From Escherichia coli (lineage in GTDB: Bacteria; Pseudomonadota; Gammaproteobacteria; Enterobacterales; Enterobacteriaceae): a stretch of 64,000 nt of DNA. The notes below the pieces were generated by a model, which was not told the origin of the DNA, made no database searches, and was given only the letters and a program-made list of their open reading frames with translations. The position numbers were made by a program, and so were the translations under genes. Positions 1 through 61,330 of the stretch are shown in pieces (position 1 is the stretch's first letter; every line of letters starts with the position of its first letter). The DNA lies in NCBI RefSeq assembly GCF_050920415.1, contig NZ_CP169309.1; one strand, given 5' to 3'.

Positions 1-2
1 CA

Positions 3-803
3 GAGCAATATCAGAAGCAATTTAATACCGGTAGCCAAACAGCAGATAACTACTACGCTTCCGTTTATTCTGTTGATCAGGGCGTAAAACGCATTCTTGA
101 ACAACTAAAGAAAAACGGACAGTATGACAATACAATTATTCTCTTTACCTCTGATAATGGTGCAGTTATCGATGGTCCTCTGCCGCTGAACGGAGCGCAA
201 AAAGGCTATAAGAGCCAGACTTATCCTGGCGGTACCCATACACCAATGTTTATGTGGTGGAAAGGAAAACTTCCGCCCGGTAATTATGACAAGCTGATTT
301 CCGCAATGGATTTCTACCCGACAGCTCTTGATGCAGCCGATATCAGCATTCCAAAAGAGCTAAAATTGGATGGTGTTTCATTGCTGCCCTGGTTGCAAGA
401 TAAGAAACAAGGTGAGCCACATAAAAATCTGACCTGGATAACATCTTATTCTCACTGGTTTGATGAGGAAAATATTCCCTTCTGGGATAATTACCACAAA
501 TTTGTCCGCCATCAGTCAGACGATTACCCGCATAACCCCAACACCGAAGATTTAAGCCAATTCTCTTATACGGTGAGAAATAACGATTATTCGCTAGTCT
601 ATACAGTAGAAAACAATCAGTTAGGTCTATACAAACTGACAGATCTACAGCAAAAAGATAACATTGCCGCCGCCAATCCGCAGATCGTTAAAGAGATGCA
701 AGGTGTGGTAAGAGAGTTTATCGACAACAGCCAGCCACCGCTTAGCGAGGTAAATCAGGCGAAGTTTAACAATATCAAGAAAGCACTAAGCGAAGCGAAA
801 TAA
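3..803 (+). CDS. ydeN: Sulfatase, C-terminal part (5' end lies outside the window)
   Basis: Open frame from window start in the frame of ORF 246..803; translation contains the sulfatase-type motif TIILFTSDNG; position immediately upstream of ydeM as in E. coli. Confidence 0.8.
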   Translation, partial: EQYQKQFNTGSQTADNYYASVYSVDQGVKRILEQLKKNGQYDNTIILFTSDNGAVIDGPLPLNGAQKGYKSQTYPGGTHTPMFMWWKGKLPPGNYDKLISAMDFYPTALDAADISIPKELKLDGVSLLPWLQDKKQGEPHKNLTWITSYSHWFDEENIPFWDNYHKFVRHQSDDYPHNPNTEDLSQFSYTVRNNDYSLVYTVENNQLGLYKLTDLQQKDNIAAANPQIVKEMQGVVREFIDNSQPPLSEVNQAKFNNIKKALSEAK

Positions 804-854
804 CTAAACCTTCATGCGGCGGATTTTTCCGCCGCCTTATTGAGCGAGATAGCG

Positions 855-2015
855 ATGCACGTTACAGCCAAGCCCTCCAGTTTTCAATGTAATCTCAAAT
901 GTGATTACTGTTTTTACCTTGAAAAAGAGTCGCAGTTTACTCATGAAAAATGGATGGATGACAGCACTCTGAAAGAGTTCATCAAACAATATATCGCAGC
1001 GTCTGGCAATCAGGTCTATTTTACCTGGCAAGGCGGTGAACCCACTCTGGCTGGCCTGGATTTTTTCCGTAAAGTTATTCACTATCAACAACGCTATGCA
1101 GGCCAAAAACGTATTTTTAATGCATTACAAACGAATGGCATTTTATTGAATAATGAATGGTGTGCCTTTCTCAAAGAACATGAGTTTCTGGTTGGTATCT
1201 CGATCGATGGACCCCAGGAGTTACATGACCGTTACAGACGCAGTAATTCGGGTAACGGAACTTTTGCAAAAGTGATAGCAGCCATCGAGCGTCTGAAATC
1301 ATATCAAGTAGAGTTTAATACGTTAACCGTCATTAATAACGTTAATGTCCATTACCCTCTTGAGGTTTATCATTTTTTAAAATCTATCGGCAGTAAACAT
1401 ATGCAATTTATCGAATTGCTCGAAACCGGGACGCCGAATATTGATTTCAGTGGTCATAGTGAGAACACATTCCGTATCATTGATTTTTCTGTGCCTCCTA
1501 CGGCTTATGGCAAGTTTATGTCAACCATTTTTATGCAATGGGTTAAAAACGATGTGGGTGAAATTTTCATCCGTCAGTTTGAAAGCTTTGTCAGCCGTTT
1601 TTTGGGGAATGGGCATACCAGTTGTATTTTCCAGGAGTCCTGCAAGGATAATCTGGTTGTTGAAAGTAATGGAGACATTTACGAATGCGACCATTTTGTC
1701 TATCCACAGTACAAAATCGGAAACATTAATAAATCGGAACTCAAAACGATGAACAGTGTACAGCTGACAGCGCAAAAAAAACGGATTTCAGCGAAATGTC
1801 AGCAATGTGTATATAAACCTATCTGCAATGGTGGTTGCCCTAAACATCGTATTACTAAAGTAAACAATGAAACTGTTTCCTATTTTTGCGAAGGTTATAA
1901 AATCCTTTTTTCAACCATGGTGCCTTATATGAACGCCATGGTGGAGTTAGCTAAGAACAGAGTTCCGCTTTACCACATTATGGATGTTGCAAAACAAATG
2001 GAGAATAATAAATAA
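855..2015 (+). CDS. ydeM: Radical SAM anaerobic sulfatase-maturating enzyme homolog
   Basis: ORF 840..2015; CxxxCxxC motif ([10 protein letters not shown]) near N-terminus and C-terminal Cys cluster; likely true start is ATG at 855 (MHVTAK) rather than TTG at 840. Confidence 0.85.
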
Positions 2016-2278
2016 CGCACTCTATTAGCTTCAGTCTTAGCCTCCTTCTTATGAACTTAACAAGGCACCCGACATAACTTCCTGTCGGGTGTTTCGTCTT
2101 CATCATCTTCCCGTGCGAAGTAAGAGCTTAAATCCTGGCTTACGAGGTATGCGTCAGGGCATTAGCAATACTCTTGATTATCAATAGCATAACCATAACC
2201 ACTGAAAATGAAATATTTCTTTATATTTCATATTGTTAAATGATACTTAAATAAATTTCATCAGTAAATCATTGCCAT

Positions 2279-2329
2279 AGATAATCATTGAATGGCACAA
2301 TCAATTTTCGCTAATGATAACCATTCCCA
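2279..2329. promoter_or_regulatory. Candidate Fur-box-like motifs (GATAATCATTGAAT and AATGATAACCATT) at the yddA 5' end
   Basis: Two close matches to the Fur consensus GATAATGATAATCATTATC read directly in the sequence; the second overlaps the annotated yddA ATG at 2314. Confidence 0.4.
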
Positions 2330-3999
2330 TTACGTTTTGTATGTTGATAGCAAAGTATCTCTGTCTGCTGAAGCCCTTTTGGCTGCGTAAGAATAATAAA
2401 ACTTCAGTGTTGTTAATCATTATTATCCTCGCCATGATCCTTGGCGTGGTTAAAATTCAGGTCTGGTTAAACGACTGGAACAATGATTTTTTCAATGCGC
2501 TAAGTCAGAAAGAAACCGATAAACTTTGGCAACTTGTTCTGTGGTTCCCTGCCCTGCTGGGGATCTTTGTATTAATATCCGTAAACAAAACATGGCTAAT
2601 TAAACTACTGACTATTCGCTGGCGCGAATGGTTAACAGATTACTACCTTAATCGCTGGTTTGCAGATAAAAACTACTACTTCACGCAGATCTACGGCGAG
2701 CATAAAAATACAGATAACCCTGACCAACGTATCGCTGAAGACATTCTCTTACTGATCAGCAAAACGCTCAGCCTTTCATTTGGCTTCATCCAGTCACTGA
2801 GCATGCTGGTCACCTTCACCGTTATTCTTTGGCAAAGCGCGGGTACGCTCTCATTCACTGTTAGTGGAACAGAATGGAATATCCATGGGTATATGGTCTA
2901 TACCGTCGCGCTTATTGTGATCGGTGGAACATTATTTACCCATAAGGTTGGAAAACGCATTCGACCACTTAATGTGGAAAAGCAACGTAGCGAAGCGACA
3001 TTTCGAACTAATCTTGTGCAGCATAATAAACAAGCGGAACTGATTGCGCTAAGCAATGCTGAATCTCTACAACGGCAGGAGTTGAGCGACAATTTTCATA
3101 TCATTAAAGAGAACTGGCATCGTTTAATGAATCGCCAGCGGTGGCTTGATTACTGGCAGAATATTTATTCGCGCTCGCTTAGCGTTCTTCCCTACTTTCT
3201 GTTATTGCCGCAGTTTATTAGCGGACAGATCAATCTGGGCGGACTGATGAAATCACGCCAGGCATTTATGCTGGTATCGAACAATTTAAGCTGGTTTATT
3301 TATAAATATGATGAACTTGCTGAACTGGCTGCGGTTATCGATCGCTTGTATGAGTTCCATCAACTCACCGAACAGCGCCCTACGAATAAGCCTAAAAATT
3401 GCCAACATGCGGTACAAGTGGCTGACGCGAGTATTCGTACTCCTGATAATAAGATCATATTAGAGAACCTGAACTTTCATGTTTCGCCAGGCAAATGGCT
3501 ATTGCTGAAAGGTTACTCTGGTGCGGGAAAAACCACACTGCTTAAAACATTATCCCACTGCTGGCCGTGGTTTAAAGGTGATATTTCTTCTCCTGCTGAC
3601 AGTTGGTATGTGTCACAAACACCGTTAATCAAAACCGGCTTACTGAAAGAGATTATTTGTAAAGCACTTCCCCTGTCCGTAGACGATAAATCGTTGAGCG
3701 AAGTACTGCATCAGGTTGGTCTGGGGAAATTGGCTGCGCGTATTCATGATCACGATCGCTGGGGAGATATTCTTTCCAGCGGCGAAAAACAACGTATCGC
3801 CCTGGCTCGATTAATTTTACGACGTCCGAAATGGATATTTCTTGACGAAACTACCTCTCATCTTGAGGAACAAGAGGCTATCCGCTTACTGCGTTTAGTG
3901 CGTGAAAAACTACCCTCAAGCGGCGTCATTATGGTCACACATCAACCTGGTGTCTGGAGCCTGGCTGATGATATTTGCGACATTAGCGCGGTTTTATAA
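2314..3999 (+). CDS. yddA: ABC transporter (fused permease/ATPase, SbmA/BacA-like membrane domain)
   Basis: 561-aa ORF with Walker A (GYSGAGKTT), ABC signature (LSSGEKQR) and Walker B (IFLDETTS); start could alternatively be ATG 2341. Confidence 0.9.
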   Translation: MITIPITFCMLIAKYLCLLKPFWLRKNNKTSVLLIIIILAMILGVVKIQVWLNDWNNDFFNALSQKETDKLWQLVLWFPALLGIFVLISVNKTWLIKLLTIRWREWLTDYYLNRWFADKNYYFTQIYGEHKNTDNPDQRIAEDILLLISKTLSLSFGFIQSLSMLVTFTVILWQSAGTLSFTVSGTEWNIHGYMVYTVALIVIGGTLFTHKVGKRIRPLNVEKQRSEATFRTNLVQHNKQAELIALSNAESLQRQELSDNFHIIKENWHRLMNRQRWLDYWQNIYSRSLSVLPYFLLLPQFISGQINLGGLMKSRQAFMLVSNNLSWFIYKYDELAELAAVIDRLYEFHQLTEQRPTNKPKNCQHAVQVADASIRTPDNKIILENLNFHVSPGKWLLLKGYSGAGKTTLLKTLSHCWPWFKGDISSPADSWYVSQTPLIKTGLLKEIICKALPLSVDDKSLSEVLHQVGLGKLAARIHDHDRWGDILSSGEKQRIALARLILRRPKWIFLDETTSHLEEQEAIRLLRLVREKLPSSGVIMVTHQPGVWSLADDICDISAVL

Positions 4000-4036
4000 A
4001 AACAATAAAAGCCCTGCTGTACGGAGATAAAAATAA

Positions 4037-6409
4037 ATGAAGCGAGTTCTTATTCCTGGCGTCATTTTATGTGGCGCTGATGTAGCGCAGGCCGTCGATG
4101 ACAAAAATATGTACATGCATGTTTTTGAAGAGATGACGGTCTATGCTCCTGTCCCTGTACCCGTAAACGGCAACACGCATTACACCAGTGAAAGCATCGA
4201 GCGTTTACCGACCGGGAATGGCAATATCAGCGATCTGCTGAGAACCAACCCTGCGGTACGCATGGATTCAACGCAAAGTACCTCATTGAACCAGGGAGAT
4301 ATTCGCCCGGAGAAAATCTCTATTCACGGTGCGTCGCCCTACCAGAATGCCTATTTGATTGACGGTATTAGTGCAACGAATAACCTGAACCCAGCGAATG
4401 AGTCCGATGCCAGTAGTGCAACCAATATTAGCGGGATGTCACAGGGGTATTATCTTGATGTCAGCTTACTGGACAATGTGACGCTTTATGACAGTTTTGT
4501 GCCGGTTGAATTTGGCCGCTTCAATGGCGGGGTAATTGATGCAAAGATCAAACGCTTCAACGCTGATGATAGCAGCGTGAAACTGGGTTATCGCACTACG
4601 CGTTCGGACTGGTTAACATCGCATATCGATGAGAATAACAAGAGCGCATTTAATCAAGGTTCTTCAGGAAGTACTTATTACTCTCCAGATTTTAAAAAGA
4701 ACTTTTATACCTTGTCGTTTAATCAGGAACTCGCTGATAACTTTGGCGTTACCGCCGGTTTATCGCGCCGCCAGTCTGATATCATCCGCGCGGATTATGT
4801 TTCGAATGACGGCATTGTCGCCGGCAGGGCACAGTATAAAAACGTTATCGATACTGCATTGAGCAAATTTACCTGGTTTGCCAGCGACCGCTTTACCCAC
4901 GATTTAACCTTAAAATATACCGGCTCCAGCCGTGATTATAATACCAGCACCTTCCCGGAGTCTGATCGCGAAATGGGTAATAAATCCTATGGTCTGGCAT
5001 GGGATATGGATACCCAGCTCGCATGGGCCAAACTGCGTACCACCGTTGGTTGGGATCATATTAGTGATTATACCCGTCACGATCATGACATCTGGTACAC
5101 CGAACTTTCATGTACATATGGTGATATTTCAGGGCGTTGCACTCGTGGCGGATTAGGACACATTTCCCAGGCTGTAGATAATTACACCTTCAAAACACGC
5201 CTTGACTGGCAAAAATTCGCCGTGGGTAATGTTTCGCATCAACCCTACTTCGGCGCGGAATACATCTATTCCGATGCATGGACTGAACGCCATAACCAGT
5301 CTGAATCCTATGTGATTAATGCTGCCGGAAAGAAAACTAACCATACCATTTACCATAAAGGTAAAGGCAGCCTGGGAATAGACAATTACACGCTGTATAT
5401 GGCGGATCGCATTAACTGGCGTAATGTGTCGTTAATGCCCGGCGTGCGGTATGACTATGATAACTATCTGTCAAACCACAATATCTCCCCGCGCTTTATG
5501 ACGGAATGGGATATTTTTGCTGATCAAACCTCAATGATTACCGCAGGTTATAACCGTTACTATGGCGGGAATATTCTTGATATGGGATTACGTGATATCC
5601 GCAATAGCTGGACGGAATCGGTATCAGGCAATAAAACCCTGACGCGTTATCAGGATTTGAAAACGCCTTATAACGATGAACTGGCAATGGGATTGCAGCA
5701 AAAAATCGGTAAGAACGTTATTGCGCGCGCAAACTATGTTTACCGTGAAGCGCATGATCAAATCAGCAAAAGCAGTCGTACCGACAGCGCGACTAAAACC
5801 ACCATTACTGAATATAACAACGACGGTAAAACCAAAACGCATTCGTTCAACCTCAGTTTTGAACTGGCCGAACCCCTGCATATCAGCCAGGTAGATATTA
5901 ACCCGCAAGTTGTCTTTAGCTATATCAAGAGCAAGGGCAACTTATCGTTGAACAATGGTTATGAGGAGAGCAATACCGGTGATAACCAGGTGGTCTATAA
6001 CGGTAATCTGGTTTCTTACGATAGCGTTCCGGTGGCAGATTTTAATAATCCATTAAAGATCTCCTTAAACATGGATTTCACACATCAACCGAGCGGATTG
6101 GTGTGGGCGAATACGCTGGCCTGGCAAGAAGCGCGTAAAGCTCGCATTATCCTCGGTAAAACGAATGCGCAATACATTAGCGAATATTCAGATTACAAAC
6201 AGTATGTTGATGAAAAACTGGATAGCAGCCTGACCTGGGACACCCGCTTGTCCTGGACGCCACAATTTCTGAAACAACAAAACCTGACGATCAGTGCCGA
6301 TATTCTCAATGTACTGGATAGCAAAACCGCTGTTGATACAACGAATACCGGCGTGGCGACCTACGCCAGTGGCCGTACTTTCTGGCTTGATGTCAGCATG
6401 AAATTTTAA
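4037..6409 (+). CDS. yddB: TonB-dependent outer membrane receptor
   Basis: 790-aa ORF, N-terminal signal peptide, C-terminal ...WLDVSMKF beta-barrel terminus; synteny yddA-yddB-pqqL. Confidence 0.9.
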   Translation: MKRVLIPGVILCGADVAQAVDDKNMYMHVFEEMTVYAPVPVPVNGNTHYTSESIERLPTGNGNISDLLRTNPAVRMDSTQSTSLNQGDIRPEKISIHGASPYQNAYLIDGISATNNLNPANESDASSATNISGMSQGYYLDVSLLDNVTLYDSFVPVEFGRFNGGVIDAKIKRFNADDSSVKLGYRTTRSDWLTSHIDENNKSAFNQGSSGSTYYSPDFKKNFYTLSFNQELADNFGVTAGLSRRQSDIIRADYVSNDGIVAGRAQYKNVIDTALSKFTWFASDRFTHDLTLKYTGSSRDYNTSTFPESDREMGNKSYGLAWDMDTQLAWAKLRTTVGWDHISDYTRHDHDIWYTELSCTYGDISGRCTRGGLGHISQAVDNYTFKTRLDWQKFAVGNVSHQPYFGAEYIYSDAWTERHNQSESYVINAAGKKTNHTIYHKGKGSLGIDNYTLYMADRINWRNVSLMPGVRYDYDNYLSNHNISPRFMTEWDIFADQTSMITAGYNRYYGGNILDMGLRDIRNSWTESVSGNKTLTRYQDLKTPYNDELAMGLQQKIGKNVIARANYVYREAHDQISKSSRTDSATKTTITEYNNDGKTKTHSFNLSFELAEPLHISQVDINPQVVFSYIKSKGNLSLNNGYEESNTGDNQVVYNGNLVSYDSVPVADFNNPLKISLNMDFTHQPSGLVWANTLAWQEARKARIILGKTNAQYISEYSDYKQYVDEKLDSSLTWDTRLSWTPQFLKQQNLTISADILNVLDSKTAVDTTNTGVATYASGRTFWLDVSMKF

Positions 6410-6453
6410 TAGTTCGGATTTTACTTAACCGGGTAAATTCGCCCGGTTTTCGC

Positions 6454-9249
6454 ATGGAGATAATTATGAGAAACCTCTGTTTCTTACTGACGTTAGTGGC
6501 AACTCTGTTGCTCCCCGGGCGACTGATTGCCGCCGCCTTACCGCAGGATGAAAAGTTAATTACCGGGCAACTGGACAATGGCTTGCGATACATGATTTAT
6601 CCGCATGCTCAACCAAAGGATCAGGTAAATTTATGGCTGCAAATTCATACCGGTTCATTGCAGGAAGAAGACAATGAGCGCGGTGTGGCTCATTTTGTAG
6701 AACATATGATGTTTAACGGCACAAAAACATGGCCGGGTAATAAAGTCATCGAAACATTTGAGTCAATGGGCCTGCGTTTTGGTCGCGATGTTAATGCCTA
6801 TACCAGCTATGACGAAACGGTGTACCAAGTAAGTTTGCCGACTACGCAGAAACAAAATCTGCAACAAGTGATGGCAATCTTCAGTGAATGGAGTAATGCC
6901 GCAACCTTTGAGAAACTTGAAGTAGACGCTGAACGCGGCGTAATTACTGAGGAATGGCGTGCATATCAGGATGCGAAATGGCGTACATCTCAGGCGCGCC
7001 GCCCTTTTCTTTTGGCAAATACACGTAATTTAGACCGTGAACCTATCGGCCTGATGGATACTGTTGCCACAGTCACACCGGCACAATTGCGCCAGTTTTA
7101 TCAACGCTGGTATCAACCCAATAATATGACCTTTATTGTGGTCGGCGATATCGACAGTAAAGAAGCGCTGGCGCTGATAAAGGATAATTTAAGTAAGCTC
7201 CCGGCTAACAAAGCAGCTGAAAATCGCGTCTGGCCGACAAAAGCCGAAAACCACCTGCGCTTTAATATCATTAATGATAAAGAAAACCGGGTGAACGGCA
7301 TCGCACTCTATTATCGCCTGCCAATGGTGCAAGTGAGCGATGAGCAAAGCTTTATCGAACAAGCTGAATGGAGCATGTTGGTTCAGCTGTTCAATCAACG
7401 TCTGCAGGAACGTATACAGTCGGGCGAGTTGAAGACTATTTCTGGTGGCACTGCGCGCAGCGTTAAAATTGCACCCGATTATCAGTCGCTGTTTTTCCGT
7501 GTAAATGCACGTGACAATAATATGCAGGATGCTGCGAATGCATTAATGGCAGAGTTGGCAACCCTCGATCAACATGGTTTTTCTGCTGAAGAACTCGACG
7601 ATGTTAAAACTACCCGCCTAACCTGGCTGAAAAATGCGGTTGATCAGCAAGCTGAACGCGATTTACGTATGCTGACCAGTCGCCTGGCGTCCAGCTCGTT
7701 AAATAATACGCCGTTCTTGTCGCCGGAAGAGACATACCAACTTTCGAAACGTCTGTGGCCGCAAATTACCGTGCAAAGTCTGGCGGAAAAATGGCAGCAG
7801 CTAAGAAAGAACCAGGACGCATTTTGGGAGCAAATGGTGAATAACGAGGTTGCAGCCAACAAAGCATTATCTCCTGCGGCTATCCTGGCGCTGGAAAAAG
7901 AGTACGCCAACAAAAAGCTGGCAGCTTACATCTTCCCTGGCAGAAATTTATCGTTAACAGTAGACGCTGACCCACAGGCGGAAATTAGCAGTAAAGAAAC
8001 ACTGGCTGAGAATCTGACATCATTAACACTTTCTAATGGTGCCAGGGTTATTCTGGCAAAATCAGCGGGTGAAGAGCAAAAGCTACAAATTATTGCCGTA
8101 TCTAATAAAGGTGATTTAAGTTTCCCTGCGCAGCAAAAATCACTTATCGCGCTGGCAAATAAAGCGGTGAGTGGCAGCGGCGTTGGTGATCTCTCCTCTT
8201 CCAGCCTGAAACGCTGGAGTGCGGAAAACTCGGTAACCATGAGCAGCAAAGTCAGTGGGCTGAATACGTTGCTCTCCGTGAGCGCGCGGGCTAATAATCC
8301 TGAACCTGGTTTCCAGTTGATTAACCAGCGAATCACTCACAGCACGATTAATGACAATATTTGGGCATCGCTACAAAATGCTCAAATTCAGGCGTTGAAA
8401 ACGCTCGACCAGCGTCCAGCAGAGAAATTCGCCCAGCAGATGTATGAGAAGCGCTATGCTGATGACCGTACGAAATTACTGCAAGAAAAACAGATTGCAC
8501 AATTTACTGCCGCAGACGCGCTGGCAGCCGATCGCCAGTTATTTTCATCTCCAGCGGATATCACGTTTGTCGTTGTCGGTAATGTCGCAGAAGACAAACT
8601 TCTGCCGTTAATTACGCGTTACTTAGGATCAATAAAACACTCTGATTCGCCATTAGCCGCAGGTAAACCATTAACTCGCGCGACGGACAACGCATCGGTT
8701 ACAGTAAAAGAACAAAATGAACCTGTGGCACAGGTTTCACAGTGGAATCGTTATGATTCCCGGACACCTGTAAATCTGGAGACGCGTATGGCGCTGGATG
8801 CCTTTAACGTTGCCCTGGCTAAAGATCTGCGCATTAATATTCGTGAACAGGCATCTGGGGCATACAGCGTTTCTTCTCGCCTCTCGGTTGATCCTCAGGC
8901 CAAAGATATCACCCATTTGCTGGCTTTTACTTGTCAACCAGAACGGCATGAAGAACTGTTAGCGTTAGCGAATGAAGTGATGGTTAAGCGTCTGGCTAAA
9001 GGGATCAGAAAGCAAGAACTGAACGAATACCAGCAAAACGTTCAGCGTAGCCTCGATATCCAACAGCGTAGCGTTCAACAATTAGCGAACACCATTGTAA
9101 ATAGTCTTATTCAATATGACGATCCTGCCGCATGGACTGCGCAGGAGCAATTATTGAAACAAATGACGGTAGATAATGTTAACACTACGGTTAAACAATA
9201 TCTTTCTCATCCGGTGAATACCTTTACCGGAGTATTACTACCAAAATAA
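6454..9249 (+). CDS. pqqL: Periplasmic M16 (pitrilysin-family) zinc peptidase
   Basis: 931-aa ORF with signal peptide and inverted zinc-binding motif HFVEH (HxxEH). Confidence 0.9.
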   Translation: MEIIMRNLCFLLTLVATLLLPGRLIAAALPQDEKLITGQLDNGLRYMIYPHAQPKDQVNLWLQIHTGSLQEEDNERGVAHFVEHMMFNGTKTWPGNKVIETFESMGLRFGRDVNAYTSYDETVYQVSLPTTQKQNLQQVMAIFSEWSNAATFEKLEVDAERGVITEEWRAYQDAKWRTSQARRPFLLANTRNLDREPIGLMDTVATVTPAQLRQFYQRWYQPNNMTFIVVGDIDSKEALALIKDNLSKLPANKAAENRVWPTKAENHLRFNIINDKENRVNGIALYYRLPMVQVSDEQSFIEQAEWSMLVQLFNQRLQERIQSGELKTISGGTARSVKIAPDYQSLFFRVNARDNNMQDAANALMAELATLDQHGFSAEELDDVKTTRLTWLKNAVDQQAERDLRMLTSRLASSSLNNTPFLSPEETYQLSKRLWPQITVQSLAEKWQQLRKNQDAFWEQMVNNEVAANKALSPAAILALEKEYANKKLAAYIFPGRNLSLTVDADPQAEISSKETLAENLTSLTLSNGARVILAKSAGEEQKLQIIAVSNKGDLSFPAQQKSLIALANKAVSGSGVGDLSSSSLKRWSAENSVTMSSKVSGLNTLLSVSARANNPEPGFQLINQRITHSTINDNIWASLQNAQIQALKTLDQRPAEKFAQQMYEKRYADDRTKLLQEKQIAQFTAADALAADRQLFSSPADITFVVVGNVAEDKLLPLITRYLGSIKHSDSPLAAGKPLTRATDNASVTVKEQNEPVAQVSQWNRYDSRTPVNLETRMALDAFNVALAKDLRINIREQASGAYSVSSRLSVDPQAKDITHLLAFTCQPERHEELLALANEVMVKRLAKGIRKQELNEYQQNVQRSLDIQQRSVQQLANTIVNSLIQYDDPAAWTAQEQLLKQMTVDNVNTTVKQYLSHPVNTFTGVLLPK

Positions 9250-9255
9250 TGACGT

Positions 9256-9286
9256 CCCCCGTCAACATATCGTTGGCGGGGGTTTT
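9256..9286 (+). terminator. Rho-independent terminator after pqqL
   Basis: GC-rich hairpin CCCCCGTCAAC...GTTGGCGGGGG followed by TTTT. Confidence 0.6.
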
Positions 9287-9510
9287 AGCAACAGACGTTA
9301 TTTTATATAATAATTTTATGAATGCGTTCAAAATAACAACCGAGTACTAATAATGATATTTTAAGGGCTAATTTTTATGTGATAATTCACCAGAGTTAGA
9401 AAGCGCGTCAAAATAATGACATACAACACCACACTACAATCCATAACACCCTACGCTATTGTTTTTTAACGTAAATATATTTTTCCCATAATATCTCACG
9501 ATAAATAACA

Positions 9511-9530
9511 TTAGGATTTTGTTATTTAAA
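9511..9530 (+). promoter_or_regulatory. GAD box (GadE/GadX/GadW binding site) upstream of gadB
   Basis: Exact match to the 20-bp GAD box TTAGGATTTTGTTATTTAAA, about 80 bp upstream of the gadB ATG. Confidence 0.75.
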
Positions 9531-9609
9531 CACAAGACCTTTGCACTTGCTTACTTTATCGATAAATCCTACTTTTTTAATGCGATCCAATCATTTTAAG
9601 GAGTTTAAA

Positions 9610-11010
9610 ATGGATAAGAAGCAAGTAACGGATTTAAGGTCGGAATTACTCGATTCACGTTTTGGCGCTAAGTCTATTTCCACTATTGCAGAATCAAAAC
9701 GATTTCCGCTGCACGAAATGCGCGATGATGTCGCATTCCAGATTATCAATGATGAGTTATATCTTGATGGCAACGCTCGTCAGAATCTGGCAACGTTCTG
9801 CCAGACCTGGGACGACGAAAATGTCCATAAGTTGATGGATTTATCCATTAACAAAAACTGGATCGACAAAGAAGAATATCCGCAATCTGCAGCAATCGAT
9901 CTGCGTTGCGTAAACATGGTTGCCGATCTGTGGCATGCGCCTGCACCGAAAAATGGTCAGGCCGTTGGCACCAACACCATTGGTTCTTCCGAGGCCTGTA
10001 TGCTCGGCGGGATGGCGATGAAATGGCGTTGGCGCAAGCGTATGGAAGCTGCAGGTAAGCCGACTAACAAACCGAACCTGGTGTGCGGTCCGGTACAAAT
10101 CTGCTGGCATAAATTCGCCCGCTACTGGGATGTGGAGTTGCGTGAGATCCCTATGCGCCCCGGTCAGTTGTTTATGGACCCGAAACGCATGATTGAAGCC
10201 TGCGACGAAAACACTATCGGCGTGGTGCCGACTTTCGGCGTGACCTATACCGGTAACTATGAGTTCCCGCAACCGCTGCACGATGCACTGGATAAATTCC
10301 AGGCCGACACCGGTATCGACATCGACATGCACATCGACGCCGCCAGCGGTGGCTTCCTGGCACCGTTCGTCGCCCCGGATATCGTCTGGGACTTCCGCCT
10401 GCCGCGTGTGAAATCGATCAGTGCTTCAGGCCACAAATTCGGTCTGGCTCCGCTGGGCTGCGGCTGGGTTATCTGGCGTGACGAAGAAGCGCTGCCGCAG
10501 GAACTGGTATTCAACGTTGACTACCTCGGTGGTCAGATTGGGACTTTCGCCATCAACTTCTCCCGTCCGGCAGGCCAGGTGATTGCACAATACTATGAGT
10601 TTCTGCGCCTCGGTCGTGAAGGCTATACCAAAGTACAGAACGCCTCCTACCAGGTTGCCGCTTATCTGGCGGATGAAATCGCCAAACTGGGGCCGTATGA
10701 GTTCATCTGTACGGGTCGCCCGGACGAAGGCATCCCGGCGGTTTGCTTCAAACTGAAAGATGGTGAAGATCCGGGATACACCCTGTATGACCTCTCTGAA
10801 CGTCTGCGTCTGCGCGGCTGGCAGGTTCCGGCTTTCACTCTCGGCGGTGAAGCCACTGACATCGTGGTGATGCGCATTATGTGCCGTCGTGGCTTCGAAA
10901 TGGACTTTGCTGAACTGTTGCTGGAAGACTACAAAGCCTCCCTGAAATATCTCAGCGACCACCCGAAACTGCAGGGTATTGCCCAGCAGAACAGCTTTAA
11001 ACACACCTGA
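9610..11010 (+). CDS. gadB: Glutamate decarboxylase beta (PLP-dependent)
   Basis: 466-aa product starting [21 protein letters not shown]; the ORF track's 489-aa version is an upstream extension; RBS GGAG precedes ATG 9610. Confidence 0.95.
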
Positions 11011-11030
11011 TAACGTTGAACGGTAACGGT

Positions 11031-11056
11031 GTCCCGAAACGAACCCGTTTCGGGAC
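11031..11056 (+). other. Perfect stem-loop in the gadB-gadC intergenic region
   Basis: GTCCCGAAACG / AACC / CGTTTCGGGAC, an 11-bp perfect inverted repeat with no following T-run. Confidence 0.6.
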
Positions 11057-11165
11057 AATTTCCAAAGTCTGTTCACTGGCATTAGCAACGGAAAATATTG
11101 TTCTGAATACGCTTCAGAACAAAACAGGTGCGGTTCCGACAGGAATACCGTTTTAGGGGGATAAT

Positions 11166-12701
11166 ATGGCTACATCAGTACAGACAGGTAAAGCTAAGCA
11201 GCTCACATTACTCGGATTTTTTGCCATAACGGCATCGATGGTAATGGCTGTTTATGAATACCCTACCTTCGCAACATCGGGCTTTTCATTAGTCTTCTTC
11301 CTGCTTTTAGGCGGGATTTTATGGTTTATTCCCGTGGGGCTTTGTGCTGCGGAAATGGCCACCGTCGACGGCTGGGAAGAAGGTGGTGTCTTCGCCTGGG
11401 TATCAAATACTCTGGGGCCGAGATGGGGGTTTGCAGCGATCTCATTTGGCTATCTGCAAATCGCCATCGGTTTTATTCCAATGCTCTATTTCGTGTTAGG
11501 GGCACTCTCCTACATCCTGAAATGGCCAGCGTTGAATGAAGACCCCATTACCAAAACTATTGCAGCACTCATCATTCTTTGGGCGCTGGCATTAACACAG
11601 TTTGGTGGCACGAAATACACGGCGCGAATTGCTAAAGTTGGCTTCTTCGCCGGTATCCTGTTACCTGCATTTATTTTGATCGCATTAGCAGCTATTTATC
11701 TGCACTCCGGTGCTCCCGTTGCTATCGAAATGGATGCGAAAACCTTCTTCCCTGACTTCTCTAAAGTCGGCACCCTGGTTGTGTTTGTTGCCTTCATTTT
11801 GAGTTATATGGGGGTAGAAGCTTCCGCAACCCACGTCAATGAAATGCGCAATCCCGGTCGCGATTATCCGCTGGCGATGTTACTGCTGATGGTGGCGGCA
11901 ATCTGCTTAAGCTCTGTTGGCGGCTTGTCTATTGCGATGGTTATTCCGGGTAATGAAATCAACCTCTCCGCAGGGGTAATGCAAACCTTTACCGTTCTGA
12001 TGTCACATGTGGCACCGGAAATTGAGTGGACGGTTCGCGTGATCTCCGCACTGCTGTTGCTGGGTGTTCTGGCGGAAATCGCTTCCTGGATTGTTGGCCC
12101 TTCTCGCGGGATGTATGTCACCGCGCAGAAAAACCTGCTGCCAGCGGCGTTCGCTAAAATGAACAAAAATGGCGTACCGGTAACGCTGGTTATTTCGCAG
12201 CTGGTGATTACTACTATCGCGTTGATCATCCTCACCAATACCGGTGGCGGTAACAATATGTCCTTCCTGATTGCCCTGGCGCTGACGGTGGTGATTTATC
12301 TGTGTGCTTATTTCATGCTGTTTATTGGCTACATTGTGTTAGTGCTTAAACATCCTGACTTAAAACGCACATTTAATATCCCTGGTGGTAAAGGGGTGAA
12401 ACTGGTCGTGGCAATTGTCGGTCTGCTGACTTCAATTATGGCGTTTATTGTTTCCTTCCTGCCGCCGGATAATATCCAGGGGGACTCTACCGATATGTAT
12501 GTCGAATTACTGGTCGTTAGTTTCCTGGTGGTACTTGCCCTGCCCTTCATTCTCTATGCTGTTCATGATCGTAAAGGCAAAGCGAATACCGGCGTATCTC
12601 TGGAACCAATCAACAGCCAGAACGCTCCGAAAGGTCACTTCTTCCTGCACCCGCGTGCACGTTCACCACACTATATTGTGATGAATGACAAGAAACACTA
12701 A
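11166..12701 (+). CDS. gadC: Glutamate:GABA antiporter
   Basis: 511-aa polytopic membrane protein directly downstream of gadB. Confidence 0.95.
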
Positions 12702-12726
12702 CCATGTCTGAATGGTTATAAGACAA

Positions 12727-12756
12727 GGGAGCGATAATTCATCGCTCCCTTTTTCG
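12727..12756 (+). terminator. Rho-independent terminator after gadC
   Basis: Hairpin GGGAGCGAT-AATTC-ATCGCTCCC followed by TTTTT. Confidence 0.7.
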
Positions 12757-12831
12757 TGCTCGCTGTCGTATTGACTTAACCGGGATAAGTACGAGAATGA
12801 GCGCACATCTGTTTACCGGAAACCAGCATAT

Positions 12832-14151
12832 ATGGATATCTGCTCCCGAAACGAGAAATTAGCGATTAGAAGACCAGCGGTACTGGTTGCACTGGCACTT
12901 TTACTGTGTAGTTGCAAAAGCACGCCCCCAGAGTCAATGGTGACACCACCAACAGGTTCGAAGCCACCAGCTACGACGCAACAATCGTCACAACCGATGC
13001 GTGGCATCTGGCTGGCCACAGTGTCTCGCCTCGACTGGCCACCGGTTTCCTCGGTTAACATTAGTAACCCCACCAGCCGTGCACGTGTACAACAACAGGC
13101 GATGATCGACAAACTGGATCATCTGCAACGTCTCGGTATAAACACGGTCTTTTTCCAGGTCAAGCCGGACGGTACCGCACTATGGCCATCGAAAATTTTG
13201 CCGTGGTCCGATCTTATGACCGGTAAGATTGGCGAAAACCCGGGTTACGATCCGTTGCAATTTATGCTCGACGAAGCCCACAAGCGTGGGATGAAAGTAC
13301 ACGCCTGGTTTAACCCTTACCGCGTATCGGTTAATACAAAGCCTGGTACTATCAGGGAACTGAATAGCACCCTGTCTCAACAACCGGCCAGCGTCTATGT
13401 GCAACACCGCGACTGGATTAGAACGTCGGGTGATCGGTTTGTCCTCGACCCAGGCATCCCTGAGGTTCAGGACTGGATCACATCAATAGTCGCGGAAGTG
13501 GTTTCCCGCTATCCGGTAGATGGCGTGCAGTTTGACGACTATTTTTATACTGAGTCACCAGCTTCACGGCTAAATGATAACGAAACGTACCGCAAATACG
13601 GAGGCGCATTTGCGTCAAAAGCAGACTGGCGGCGCAACAATACTCAGCAGTTAATTGCGAAGGTATCGCACACCATTAAAAGCATTAAGCCGGAAGTCGA
13701 ATTTGGCGTTAGCCCGGCAGGCGTGTGGCGTAACCGATCACACGATCCGCTCGGTTCCGATACCCGAGGCGCGGCAGCCTATGACGAATCCTATGCTGAC
13801 ACCCGTCGATGGGTGGAACAAGGATTGCTGGATTACATTGCTCCCCAAATTTACTGGCCGTTCTCACGGAGTGCCGCACGTTATGACGTTTTGGCAAAAT
13901 GGTGGGCGGATGTCGTTAAACCGACCAGGACCCGCCTGTATATCGGTATCGCCTTCTATAAAGTGGGTGAACCTTCAAAGATAGAACCAGACTGGATGAT
14001 TAACGGTGGCGTACCGGAACTGAAAAAGCAGCTCGATCTTAACGATGCTGTACCAGAAATCAGCGGCACAATCTTGTTCCGTGAGGACTATCTGAACAAA
14101 CCTCAGACTCAACAAGCGGTCAGCTATTTGCAAAGTCGTTGGGGCAGTTAA
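12832..14151 (+). CDS. yddW: Putative lipoprotein, glycoside-hydrolase-like (DUF187 family)
   Basis: 439-aa ORF with signal peptide and Cys-containing lipobox-like segment (LLLCSC); synteny between gadC and dosC. Confidence 0.85.
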   Translation: MDICSRNEKLAIRRPAVLVALALLLCSCKSTPPESMVTPPTGSKPPATTQQSSQPMRGIWLATVSRLDWPPVSSVNISNPTSRARVQQQAMIDKLDHLQRLGINTVFFQVKPDGTALWPSKILPWSDLMTGKIGENPGYDPLQFMLDEAHKRGMKVHAWFNPYRVSVNTKPGTIRELNSTLSQQPASVYVQHRDWIRTSGDRFVLDPGIPEVQDWITSIVAEVVSRYPVDGVQFDDYFYTESPASRLNDNETYRKYGGAFASKADWRRNNTQQLIAKVSHTIKSIKPEVEFGVSPAGVWRNRSHDPLGSDTRGAAAYDESYADTRRWVEQGLLDYIAPQIYWPFSRSAARYDVLAKWWADVVKPTRTRLYIGIAFYKVGEPSKIEPDWMINGGVPELKKQLDLNDAVPEISGTILFREDYLNKPQTQQAVSYLQSRWGS

Positions 14152-60027: not shown

Positions 60028-61089
60028 TTACAGCGCAATACGAATCACATCGTCTGGCTGGGTAGCTTCCTGCTGTTTAGTGGATTTTTGTTTCACACTG
60101 ACATACAGCGTTTTGCCATCGGCAGACAGCGCCAGGCTGTTTGGATGAGTCGGCGTATCGAACGTTTTCACCACTTTATAGCTTTTCGCGTCAATCACAC
60201 TGACTTTACCTGCCTGACGATGCGTTACGTAGGCTTCATTACGCGCTGGGTTAAACAGCACAGCCAGTGATTCCGGTGCCGCAACCTTCGCCAGAATATT
60301 GCCATTACGGGTATCGACCACTAGCACTTCTGCCGCTTTAGAATCGGTGATAAATGCACGCTGCCTGGCGGTATCGAGGCTGATGTTGATAAAGAAGTGC
60401 TCTTTGCCATCATCCAGCAGCTTTTTACGGCTGAGGATTTTATTGTCGGCGGTGTCGATGGTAATCAATTCACCATCGGCATTAGTGGTGTAAAGACGTT
60501 TGCCTTTGCTATCCAGCGCCAGACCGGTACTCATTTTACCGGTGTTCTGGATGGCGGTTTTCAGTTTGATATTCTCGCCATCAACGACCCAAATCACGCT
60601 CTCTTTACCAATACCACTGATGTAAACGGTGTTCGTGGCATCATCAGCTACCAGCTCACGCGGTTGCAGCGGGCGCACCTCTTCCGTGCGCTTACGATCA
60701 TCCAGCACCAGACGGCCTTTCACTTCGCCCGTTTTGGCATCTATCGCCGTGACCGCGCTGTTTACGGTGTTACCAAACCACAACGTCTGAGTCGTGTTAT
60801 TGATGGTGGCACCAAACGGCTTGAGATCGTTATGGATCGCCTGAGTTACCTCCAGAGTGACCGGATCGAGACGATAAACCACCCCGCCTTTATCCAGTTT
60901 GCGGCTTTGTGAAGTAGCGAGCCACAGCGCGTTTTCCTGCTGGCTATAAGCCATTTCGTAGGCACCTTTACCTACCGCTTTACGCAGCATTTCTTCTGCG
61001 GCCTGCGTACTGAATGATGAAGCAATAAGCAATGAACCTAACAGTAATGAACCACGCAGGCGCGATGAAAACAGATGACGTAAATGCAT
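60028..61089 (-). CDS. yncE: Periplasmic seven-bladed beta-propeller protein
   Basis: 353 aa with signal peptide; synteny ansP-yncE-yncD. Confidence 0.9.
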   Translation of the reverse strand: MHLRHLFSSRLRGSLLLGSLLIASSFSTQAAEEMLRKAVGKGAYEMAYSQQENALWLATSQSRKLDKGGVVYRLDPVTLEVTQAIHNDLKPFGATINNTTQTLWFGNTVNSAVTAIDAKTGEVKGRLVLDDRKRTEEVRPLQPRELVADDATNTVYISGIGKESVIWVVDGENIKLKTAIQNTGKMSTGLALDSKGKRLYTTNADGELITIDTADNKILSRKKLLDDGKEHFFINISLDTARQRAFITDSKAAEVLVVDTRNGNILAKVAAPESLAVLFNPARNEAYVTHRQAGKVSVIDAKSYKVVKTFDTPTHPNSLALSADGKTLYVSVKQKSTKQQEATQPDDVIRIAL

Positions 61090-61330
61090 GACGACTCCCT
61101 TTGATGAACCGATATTTTTGCTGCTTCACAATGCTTCGCTAAGCGTAATCATCGTTACGCTCTTGTTATAAATGGGAATGGTAATCATTATTTTCTCAAA
61201 TGTGGAGCATTTCTTGCCGTTACGACTACAATTTTCTCAATTACTTAACGTATTGTGCCGTTTCATTTTCCATAAATTTACAATTTCATTACCATGACGG
61301 CGTTTTCCCATTCTTAACCTGGCTTTTTTC

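Follow-up and report, generated by a model that had tools for sequence, protein, structure and literature searches.

The closest described counterparts of the yddA-yddB-pqqL operon of Escherichia coli are the Fus system of Pectobacterium (FusA/FusB/FusC/FusD) and the SbmA/BacA-type peptide importers with an ABC domain, such as Rv1819c of Mycobacterium tuberculosis and YddA of Burkholderia. A Fus-like, protease-associated import architecture of YddB and PqqL has already been published (Grinter 2019, PMC6793856), and the structures and localisation of both proteins have been shown by others. According to published work, PqqL cleaved neither ferredoxin nor the tested mammalian iron proteins, and no contribution of the yddA-yddB-pqqL system to growth was observed in iron-limited LB. 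Burkholderia YddA is needed for uptake of the lasso peptide ubonodin, and one report has suggested porphyrin efflux for E. coli YddA instead.

Regulation of the operon by Fur is established no less than its Fus-like import. The yddA box was predicted in 2007 and 2013 and described as overlapping the start codon (PMC2189734, PMC3855560), and the latter study reported this box together with co-transcription of the genes and derepression in a fur mutant. In CFT073 lacking fur, expression of the operon rises 52-fold, accompanied by a ChIP peak, and expression also rises in fur mutants of eight strains. In one study, neither dipyridyl nor FeCl3 altered expression in CFT073 despite the fur effect (PMC3855560); PqqL is induced by bipyridyl. 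Others have thus documented Fur occupancy and Fur dependence as well as co-transcription, and a Fur binding site over the annotated yddA start is part of the published record. The fur-mutant, ChIP and bipyridyl data bear out the proposal of an earlier note on this DNA that the operon is iron-repressed. Here, we map published Fur footprints onto a defined operator, follow the conservation of that operator and present a comparative case for a downstream start codon of YddA.

Gene content of the operon

The window, i.e., the whole 64,000-nucleotide stretch of E. coli DNA that was analysed, contains at 2272-9249 the well-studied, iron-repressed yddA-yddB-pqqL operon. Its features are as follows:

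2272..2277, + strand: predicted -35 of the yddA promoter, TTGCCA (consensus scan)
2280..2293, no strand assigned: motif 1 of the earlier note, a weak half-site resembling a Fur box, between the predicted -35 and -10
2294..2301, + strand: predicted extended -10, TGgCACAAT (consensus scan)
2310..2334, no strand assigned: Fur operator (motif 2) of two overlapping 19-bp sites, 2310-2328 (15/19) and 2316-2334 (13/19), with the 7-1-7 centre at 2322
2314..2340, + strand: annotated first nine yddA codons (MITIPITFC), most likely untranslated leader
2314-3999, + strand: yddA, annotated ORF of 561 aa, with ATG 2341 in frame as codon 10
2341..3999, + strand: yddA as proposed (552 aa), encoding an SbmA/BacA-like membrane domain and an ABC ATPase in one chain
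2411..2430, no strand assigned: intragenic Fur-like site, TGTTAATCATTATTA, 12/14 (14/19 as a 19-mer)
4037..6409, + strand: yddB, FusA-type TonB-dependent outer-membrane transporter (PDB 6OFR, E=0; FusA 4ZGV, E=2e-80)
6454..9249, + strand: pqqL, FusC-type periplasmic M16 metalloprotease (PDB 6OFS/6OFT, E=0; FusC 6B03, E=1e-56)

The interval from ydeM to gadB holds these three genes only. The RefSeq annotation concurs with the assignment of the ORFs to YddA, YddB and PqqL, so that, with the ORF list and the PDB matches, the gene trio and coordinates given in the earlier note are correct; the Fus-type architecture that it had recognised is likewise consistent with the matches of YddB to FusA and of PqqL to FusC. 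YddA carries the domains PF05992/PF06472 and PF00005, with Rv1819c (6TQE) as its best solved relative, and distant YddA homologues adjoin M16 proteases in approximately 20 gammaproteobacterial loci. In a scan of one genome per species, E. coli and one Orbaceae were the sole close relatives to appear, other Escherichia species being absent, and metagenomic orthologs were therefore used instead.

The Fur operator and the Fur-like sites around it

The earlier note had pointed to two Fur-box-like sequences at the 5' end of yddA, which fared differently. The 3' one (motif 2), with its core AATGATAACCATT at 2313-2325 overlapping ATG 2314, is a genuine Fur operator, as judged from its consensus match and local probability, published ChIP-exo data and orthologs. 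Scoring of Fur sites relied on the 19-bp consensus, a 7-1-7 motif and, for the identical K-12 sequence, a published information-theory value. Positions 2310-2328 match the consensus at 15/19 positions, the joint best in the 64 kb; there are two such sites among the 128,000 strand positions of the window, with 0.25 expected from shuffles. Locally, within the AT-rich intergenic sequence, motif 2 has a probability of P=0.007. The known yncE/yncD Fur box accounts for the remaining 15/19 site and provides an internal positive control; the two boxes have 20/21 nt in common and deviate from the consensus in the same three ways. A genome-wide PWM scan gave the K-12 operator, at +8 relative to the start, a score of 19.6 bits (PMC2189734), and the Fur box reported in 2013, GGGAATGGTTATCATTAG (PMC3855560), is the reverse complement of window positions 2311-2328.

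Fur ChIP or footprinting was among the checks named in the earlier note, and the published footprints map onto motif 2. The MG1655 ChIP-exo footprint at 1577347-1577374 converts to window positions 2306-2333, a mapping that depends on an inferred coordinate offset backed by three concordant checks, and the W3110 footprint at 1581039-1581051 converts to 2319-2331. In the published ChIP-exo data, Fur binds the yddA site in iron-replete cells only. The operator sequence is invariant in 11 E. coli alleles and identical in K-12. All 10 orthologous clusters examined (the window included) have a Fur box of 15-17/19; in the nine other yddA-TBDT-M16 clusters, with YddA proteins approximately 50-89% identical, the boxes lie in unrelated flanking contexts. 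At the eight loci measured (all of the nine but the Orbaceae locus, L007), the box lies 31-73 nt upstream of the ATG equivalent to codon 10 of annotated yddA (M10).

Motif 1 (GATAATCATTGAAT at 2280-2293), the other Fur-box-like sequence of the earlier note, did not hold up as a second Fur box, being no better than chance. It matches the consensus at 12/19 positions, a score that one or more sites in the region reach by chance with P=0.62, and as a 7-1-7 element it scores 9/14, as do 266 sites in the window. It also lies outside the mapped footprint 2306-2333, is not in the 25-bp cluster of the published PWM scan (PMC2189734) and is not kept in the closest ortholog (L003, 89% identical), the spacer of which is unrelated. 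Nevertheless, a model in which motif 1 is functional, the operator extends across the -35/-10 spacer and Fur covers approximately -30 to +25 has some points in its favour. The central 10-mer of the consensus, GATAATCATT, occurs exactly in motif 1 and is locally rare (P=0.004, in a test picked after viewing the sequence), motif 1 sits in the predicted promoter spacer, and it is invariant within E. coli except for position 2291. Furthermore, Fur can extend along DNA starting at a strong site. However, conservation of motif 1 in E. coli is no higher than that of the whole promoter, and we consider such an extended operator doubtful, with about one chance in four.

Another site, absent from the earlier note, lies inside the gene at 2411-2430. 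It has the joint best 7-1-7 score of the window, is stronger than motif 1 and is covered by a second published MG1655 footprint (1577233-1577267, corresponding to window positions 2413-2447 under the inferred offset used above); the site is weaker in orthologs. We regard as improbable a bipartite operator in which the sites in the leader (2310-2334) and within the gene (2411-2430) would be co-bound by looping or roadblock, and the yddA and yncE boxes would represent a special sub-class of Fur sites or be shared with a second factor. If true, this arrangement could explain why the operon responded, in one study, to fur deletion and urine but not to simple iron chelation.

The predicted promoter, the probable leader and the start codon of YddA

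The predicted yddA promoter matches the consensus at 9/12 positions, with an 18-nt spacer. In L003, the -35 is kept as TTGCAA at the same 18-nt spacing to the -10, and a 10-nt block, TGGCACAATC, is invariant in the window, K-12 and L003, whereas the flanking spacer diverges. E. coli and L003 share conserved blocks at the -35, the extended -10, the operator core and ATG 2341. In a further ortholog (L004), TTGAAA-16-TATAAT stands directly 5' of a 17/19 box, which ends 10 nt before the ATG. From the position of the extended -10, transcription of yddA probably starts near 2308-2310, which would place the 5' end of the mRNA approximately 4-6 nt before ATG 2314. Searches of the literature and supplements for transcription start, ribosome-profiling or N-terminal protein data on yddA found none, and yddA does not figure in the SMRT-Cappable-seq supplements. 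The structure of the leader RNA is no different from that of shuffles (z=+0.75), and no Rfam families were found in 1950-2450.

The earlier note had raised the possibility that YddA starts at ATG 2341, and the comparative evidence supports this well: translation most likely starts there, nine codons downstream of the annotated start. Shine-Dalgarno sequences are absent at ATG 2314, at ATG 2341 and in all orthologs, and thus ribosome-binding signals do not discriminate between the two starts. Among the non-E. coli homologues aligned, 22/23 start at the M10 column or one residue before it (e.g., MLIVKQF in Shewanella and MLIFKQF in Vibrio), with starts called elsewhere in P0017, P0024 and P0033, P0024 being a short call and P0033 having the M10-equivalent Met internally. 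ATG 2341 encodes the Met preceding the conserved (L/I)xKxxxxLxKPFW segment, and ATG 2314 has no counterpart in the homologues. In L003, the corresponding sequence reads ATG ATA ATT GTT ACC ATT TAG ACT TGT ATG, with an in-frame stop between the two ATGs, and of the eight ortholog loci tested, six have an in-frame stop within 3-8 codons upstream of the start. Substitutions tell the same story. From 2341 onward, identity to L003 at codon positions 1/2/3 is 0.89/0.955/0.57, whereas in the 27-nt extension it is 5/9, 6/9 and 8/9, so that 7 of the 8 extension substitutions fall at codon positions 1 and 2, a non-coding pattern. Within E. coli, polymorphisms in these 27 nt are nonsynonymous (2 sites, 2335 and 2338; 0 synonymous), whereas the next 80 nt have 7 synonymous and 0 nonsynonymous ones; codons 8-9 of the extension accordingly vary between FC, LR and FR. 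A small sample inspected among 4614 E. coli records contained no natural frameshift in 2317-2340. Two odd records of the 4614, one with a T-run insertion upstream of the box and the other with a deletion taking the promoter and ATG 2314, were uninformative as frameshifts.

It could be argued that the reference annotation is right, with YddA (561 aa) translated from ATG 2314, a transcript beginning further upstream and the operator covering the first codons. The longest ORF opens at ATG 2314, the start given for K-12 b1496 and by PGAP; each of the 11 complete E. coli alleles examined retains this ATG and keeps its frame open, neither ATG is favoured by a Shine-Dalgarno sequence, and two papers place the box over the start (PMC3855560, PMC2189734). 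However, an open 8-codon stretch arises by chance approximately 2 times in 3, and an ATG is intrinsic to the Fur consensus. Moreover, the extension is missing in every homologue, interrupted by a stop in the closest ortholog and marked by non-coding substitutions and the sole nonsynonymous polymorphisms of the first 36 codons; the conserved promoter would leave just 4-6 nt ahead of ATG 2314, and other annotation pipelines already give 552 aa for YddA. We therefore rate the annotated start at roughly one chance in ten. Use of both ATGs, giving long and short YddA isoforms, perhaps from different transcripts, appears slighter still: both ATGs are in frame and conserved in E. coli and the sequence forbids nothing, but the nine residues vary even within E. 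coli, a scan of 1900-2500 found no second + strand promoter match upstream of yddA (the sole other + strand match being intragenic), and a hairpin at 2066-2091, 3' of ydeM, argues against read-through. We found no prior paper raising a start at 2341, and with respect to the start codon the comparative case is our sole addition.

A model of the operon and its relation to known systems

Collectively, we favour, with a probability of approximately 80%, an explanation with one promoter, Fe-Fur repression via 2310-2334, translation of YddA from 2341 and Fus-like import. The operator would lie immediately downstream of the predicted extended -10 and hence span the predicted transcription start (approximately 2308-2310) as well as the transcript's first 25 nt. 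When iron is plentiful, Fe-Fur would block RNA polymerase by occlusion; the second Fur-bound site lies approximately 100 bp downstream, inside the gene. ATG 2314 would simply belong to the Fur consensus (aATGATaa) and, by happenstance, share an open frame with yddA in E. coli, and translation would begin at ATG 2341 without a Shine-Dalgarno sequence, as in all orthologs. Upon derepression, YddB would bring a protein or peptide across the outer membrane, PqqL would cut the imported material in the periplasm and YddA would move a product across the inner membrane. The promoter, the transcription start, the occlusion, the substrate and what the intragenic site does are inferred.

This is ordinary biology with a minor re-annotation. 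Constructs, fusions and structural work on YddA should use ATG 2341, although the practical gain is small, and in RegulonDB-type promoter and operator models 2310-2334 should count as part of the leader and not as coding sequence. The locus also illustrates an annotation trap: Fur boxes contain an ATG, and longest-ORF callers can start a protein inside an operator if there is no Shine-Dalgarno sequence.

The locus is the same as yddA-yddB-pqqL (b1496-b1494) of K-12 and CFT073, and the promoter-operator segment 2292-2334 is identical to that of K-12. By contrast, the window allele has diverged from most E. coli (approximately 95% identity over 1900-2700) and reads F-C rather than L-R at annotated codons 8-9 and A rather than G at 2291. 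Like classical Fur operators, the yddA operator is a 19-bp consensus-type site of overlapping units shifted by 6 bp and adjoins a predicted -10, but it does not cover the -35/-10, lying entirely 3' of the predicted -10 (see also PMC2189734), and is paired with a second bound site approximately 100 bp inside the gene. In its domains, E. coli YddA matches Rv1819c and Burkholderia YddA, although its transport activity is putative. As in the Pectobacterium Fus system, the cluster combines a TonB-dependent transporter homologous to FusA, an adjacent M16 protease homologous to FusC and an inner-membrane ABC transporter (YddA, by its domains) under iron regulation; unlike in that system, the yddA-yddB-pqqL cluster encodes no dedicated TonB homologue (FusB).

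Layout and strain variation of the yddA-yddB-pqqL locus

The trio of genes, the 2 Fur-box-like motifs reported in the earlier note at the 5' end of yddA (motif 1, 2280-2293; motif 2, 2313-2325), the annotated start at ATG 2314 and an in-frame ATG at 2341 all lie exactly where that note had placed them. The names of the 3 cluster genes are those given by RefSeq to a 100%-identical E. coli chromosome.

840-2015, ydeM
1978-2103, minus strand, small ORF (hypothetical protein; YneP in other strains), overlapping the 3' end of ydeM
between ydeM and yddA, AT-rich intergenic region of 298 bp
2314-3999, yddA ORF
4037-6409, yddB ORF
6454-9249, pqqL ORF

Within the small ORF, a hairpin at 2066-2091 (9-bp stem, followed by TTTCGTCTT) looks like the terminator of ydeM, and was not counted as a terminator in the terminator scan. 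Compared with K-12, the window has 11 nt inserted at approximately 2118-2130. Over 1900-2700, identity to most of 5353 E. coli records is only approximately 95%, and a single record, NZ_CP169399.1, matches at 100%. YddA entries with exactly the sequence of the window are deposited for strains STEC_7v and M863, which we take to belong to cryptic clade I; this would suggest that the window derives from a diverged Escherichia lineage.

Among complete E. coli genomes having the locus, approximately 14% are missing the promoter together with yddA, yddB and the 5' portion of pqqL, with the ydeM stop joined to a 3' fragment of pqqL (e.g., NZ_CP124367.1, 3613-4536, compared with 2016 to approximately 8330 in the window). 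In addition, yddA is a pseudogene in PK6, and a deletion in JML285 fuses ydeN to the middle of the Fur box. The deletions and the pseudogene indicate that the cluster is dispensable in many lineages.

Fur sites at the 5' end of yddA

The 19-bp Fur consensus was scored on both strands of the entire 64-kb window, with shuffles of the window and of the local AT-rich region as background. Motif 2 corresponds to a site at 2310-2328 matching 15 of the 19 positions, a score reached at only one further position in the window (61174); 0.25 such sites are expected from window shuffles, and local shuffles yield P = 0.007. Thus, of the 2 Fur boxes proposed, motif 2 stands, whereas motif 1 is indistinguishable from chance (12/19, local P = 0.62), its score of 9/14 as a 7-1-7 motif being shared by 266 sites in the window. 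A further sequence absent from the earlier note, TGTTAATCATTATTA (2411-2425, within yddA), reaches 12/14, the joint best 7-1-7 score of the window. The corresponding intragenic Fur-like site (2411-2430), approximately 70 nt past ATG 2341, is strong here and weaker in orthologs.

The other 15/19 match falls in an intergenic region that is a known Fur target:

60028-61089, minus strand, yncE
61174-61192, the other 15/19 Fur box
61331-63433, plus strand, yncD

Read in the direction of yncE, this box shares TAATGAT-N-ACCATTCCCATT with the yddA box (20 of 21 nt), both departing from the consensus at the same 3 positions; the 12-mer ACCATTCCCATT occurs in the 64 kb only in these 2 boxes.

The region 2272-2334 is almost invariant across 11 E. 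coli alleles. For comparison beyond the species, we used 8 yddA clusters with TonB-dependent transporter and M16 protease genes from metagenomic contigs (YddA approximately 50% to 89% identical) and one Orbaceae genome. Despite differing flanking genes, a Fur box scoring 15-17/19 precedes the start in all 9, by 31-73 nt in the 8 loci measured. In the closest ortholog (L003, YddA 89% identical), the blocks shared with the window, TTGC(C/A)AT, TGGCACAATC, CGCTAATGATAA, CCATT and GTATGTT, represent the predicted -35 (2272-2277) and extended -10 (2294-2301) elements, the operator core and ATG 2341, and the spacer holding motif 1 is unrelated between the two. In a 66%-identical cluster (L004), a promoter, TTGAAA-16-TATAAT, is followed immediately by a 17/19 box, the end of which lies 10 nt before the ATG. 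Neither significant structure in the leader RNA nor an Rfam match in the leader was detected.

A Fur box over the annotated yddA start, as the earlier note had it, was published already in 2007 and 2013. Chen et al. 2007 (PMC2189734) described a 19.6-bit cluster at +8, in which 2 overlapping sites span 25 bp, and noted its overlap with the translational start; the box of Subashchandrabose et al. 2013 (PMC3855560) is the reverse complement of 2311-2328. The latter study found yddA, yddB and pqqL to be co-transcribed, more than 30-fold up in urine and derepressed in a fur mutant, but neither dipyridyl nor FeCl3 elicited a response. Beauchene 2015, Banerjee 2020 and Gao 2023 document Fur ChIP peaks together with strong derepression.

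The table of Gao 2023, in which gene labels are off by one row from P37 onward, lists MG1655 footprints at 1577233-1577267 and 1577347-1577374, in iron-replete cells only, and a W3110 footprint at 1581039-1581051. Because the annotated yddA start in W3110 is 1581056, the last corresponds to 2319-2331; because the 13-bp yncE footprints of W3110 and MG1655 differ by 3690, the start in MG1655 (genome version v2) is 1577366. The presumed 1976-bp offset between versions v2 and v3 agrees with this value, as does the site of Chen et al. (1577358, +8), the cluster centre of which converts to 2322, the centre of TGATAAC-C-ATTCCCA. The MG1655 footprints therefore map to 2306-2333 and 2413-2447: in these converted published coordinates, the former spans motif 2 but leaves motif 1 outside, and the latter covers the intragenic site.

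The start codon of yddA

The earlier suggestion that translation begins at ATG 2341 (codon 10 of the annotated 561-aa protein, yielding 552 aa) is supported by several comparisons. In 22 of 23 aligned non-E. coli sequences (35% to 89% identity), the homologue starts at, or one residue before, the E. coli M10 column. Three aligned homologues are called elsewhere, the one from Orbaceae being a short gene call whose DNA has a start at the M10 position. L003 does contain an upstream ATG inside the box, but it is followed by an in-frame TAG, and in 6 of the 8 ortholog loci tested an in-frame stop precedes the start within 3-8 codons. When the window is compared with L003, identity over the first 200 codons from M10 is 0.89, 0.955 and 0.57 at codon positions 1, 2 and 3, compared with 5/9, 6/9 and 8/9 in the 27-nt extension (2314-2340); 7 of the 8 changes in the extension fall at positions 1 and 2 (calculated P ~6e-4 under the coding pattern). 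Within E. coli, the extension is polymorphic only at 2335 and 2338, both first codon positions (F/L and C/R, 3 haplotypes), whereas all 7 polymorphisms in 2341-2420 are synonymous.

Initiation at ATG 2314 would also have to proceed from a very short leader, the predicted promoter placing the 5' end 4-6 nt before this codon, probably too close for normal initiation. None of the E. coli records inspected, a small sample, had a natural frameshift in the extension. No Shine-Dalgarno sequence was found at either ATG or at any ortholog start, and this lack probably explains the choice of 2314 by longest-ORF gene calling. In GenBank, other pipelines have already entered E. coli YddA at 552 aa. Literature searches for yddA yielded neither a mapped transcription start, nor ribosome profiling of start sites, nor an N-terminal peptide.

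Relatives of the cluster and known import systems

The L004 cluster (Logan ERR12378274 contig, 1-13616) lies on a plasmid-like contig beside genes for Rep3, ParA/ParB and an integrase and an IS21 fragment, suggesting that the system moves horizontally. More distant YddA homologues (33% to 39% identical) from Shewanella, Vibrio, Pantoea, Dickeya, Brenneria, Pseudomonas, Gilliamella, Morganella and Providencia directly adjoin an M16 protease gene; the order of genes differs there, and a TonB-dependent receptor is present in some cases.

New here are a revised YddA start at ATG 2341, which on comparative grounds appears well supported, if still unproven, and, of the same standing, the placement of the operator in what would be an untranslated leader, along with a second, intragenic bound site. 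The Fus-like architecture and the Fur control suggested in the earlier note are established knowledge. Structure-database comparison matched YddB to 6OFR and PqqL to 6OFS/6OFT, with resemblance to the ferredoxin receptor FusA (E = 2e-80) and to FusC (E = 1e-56), respectively; the SbmA-like ABC transporter Rv1819c is the best solved relative of YddA. Grinter 2019 (PMC6793856) solved the YddB and PqqL structures, found PqqL to be periplasmic and bipyridyl-induced, and proposed a Fus-like import model.
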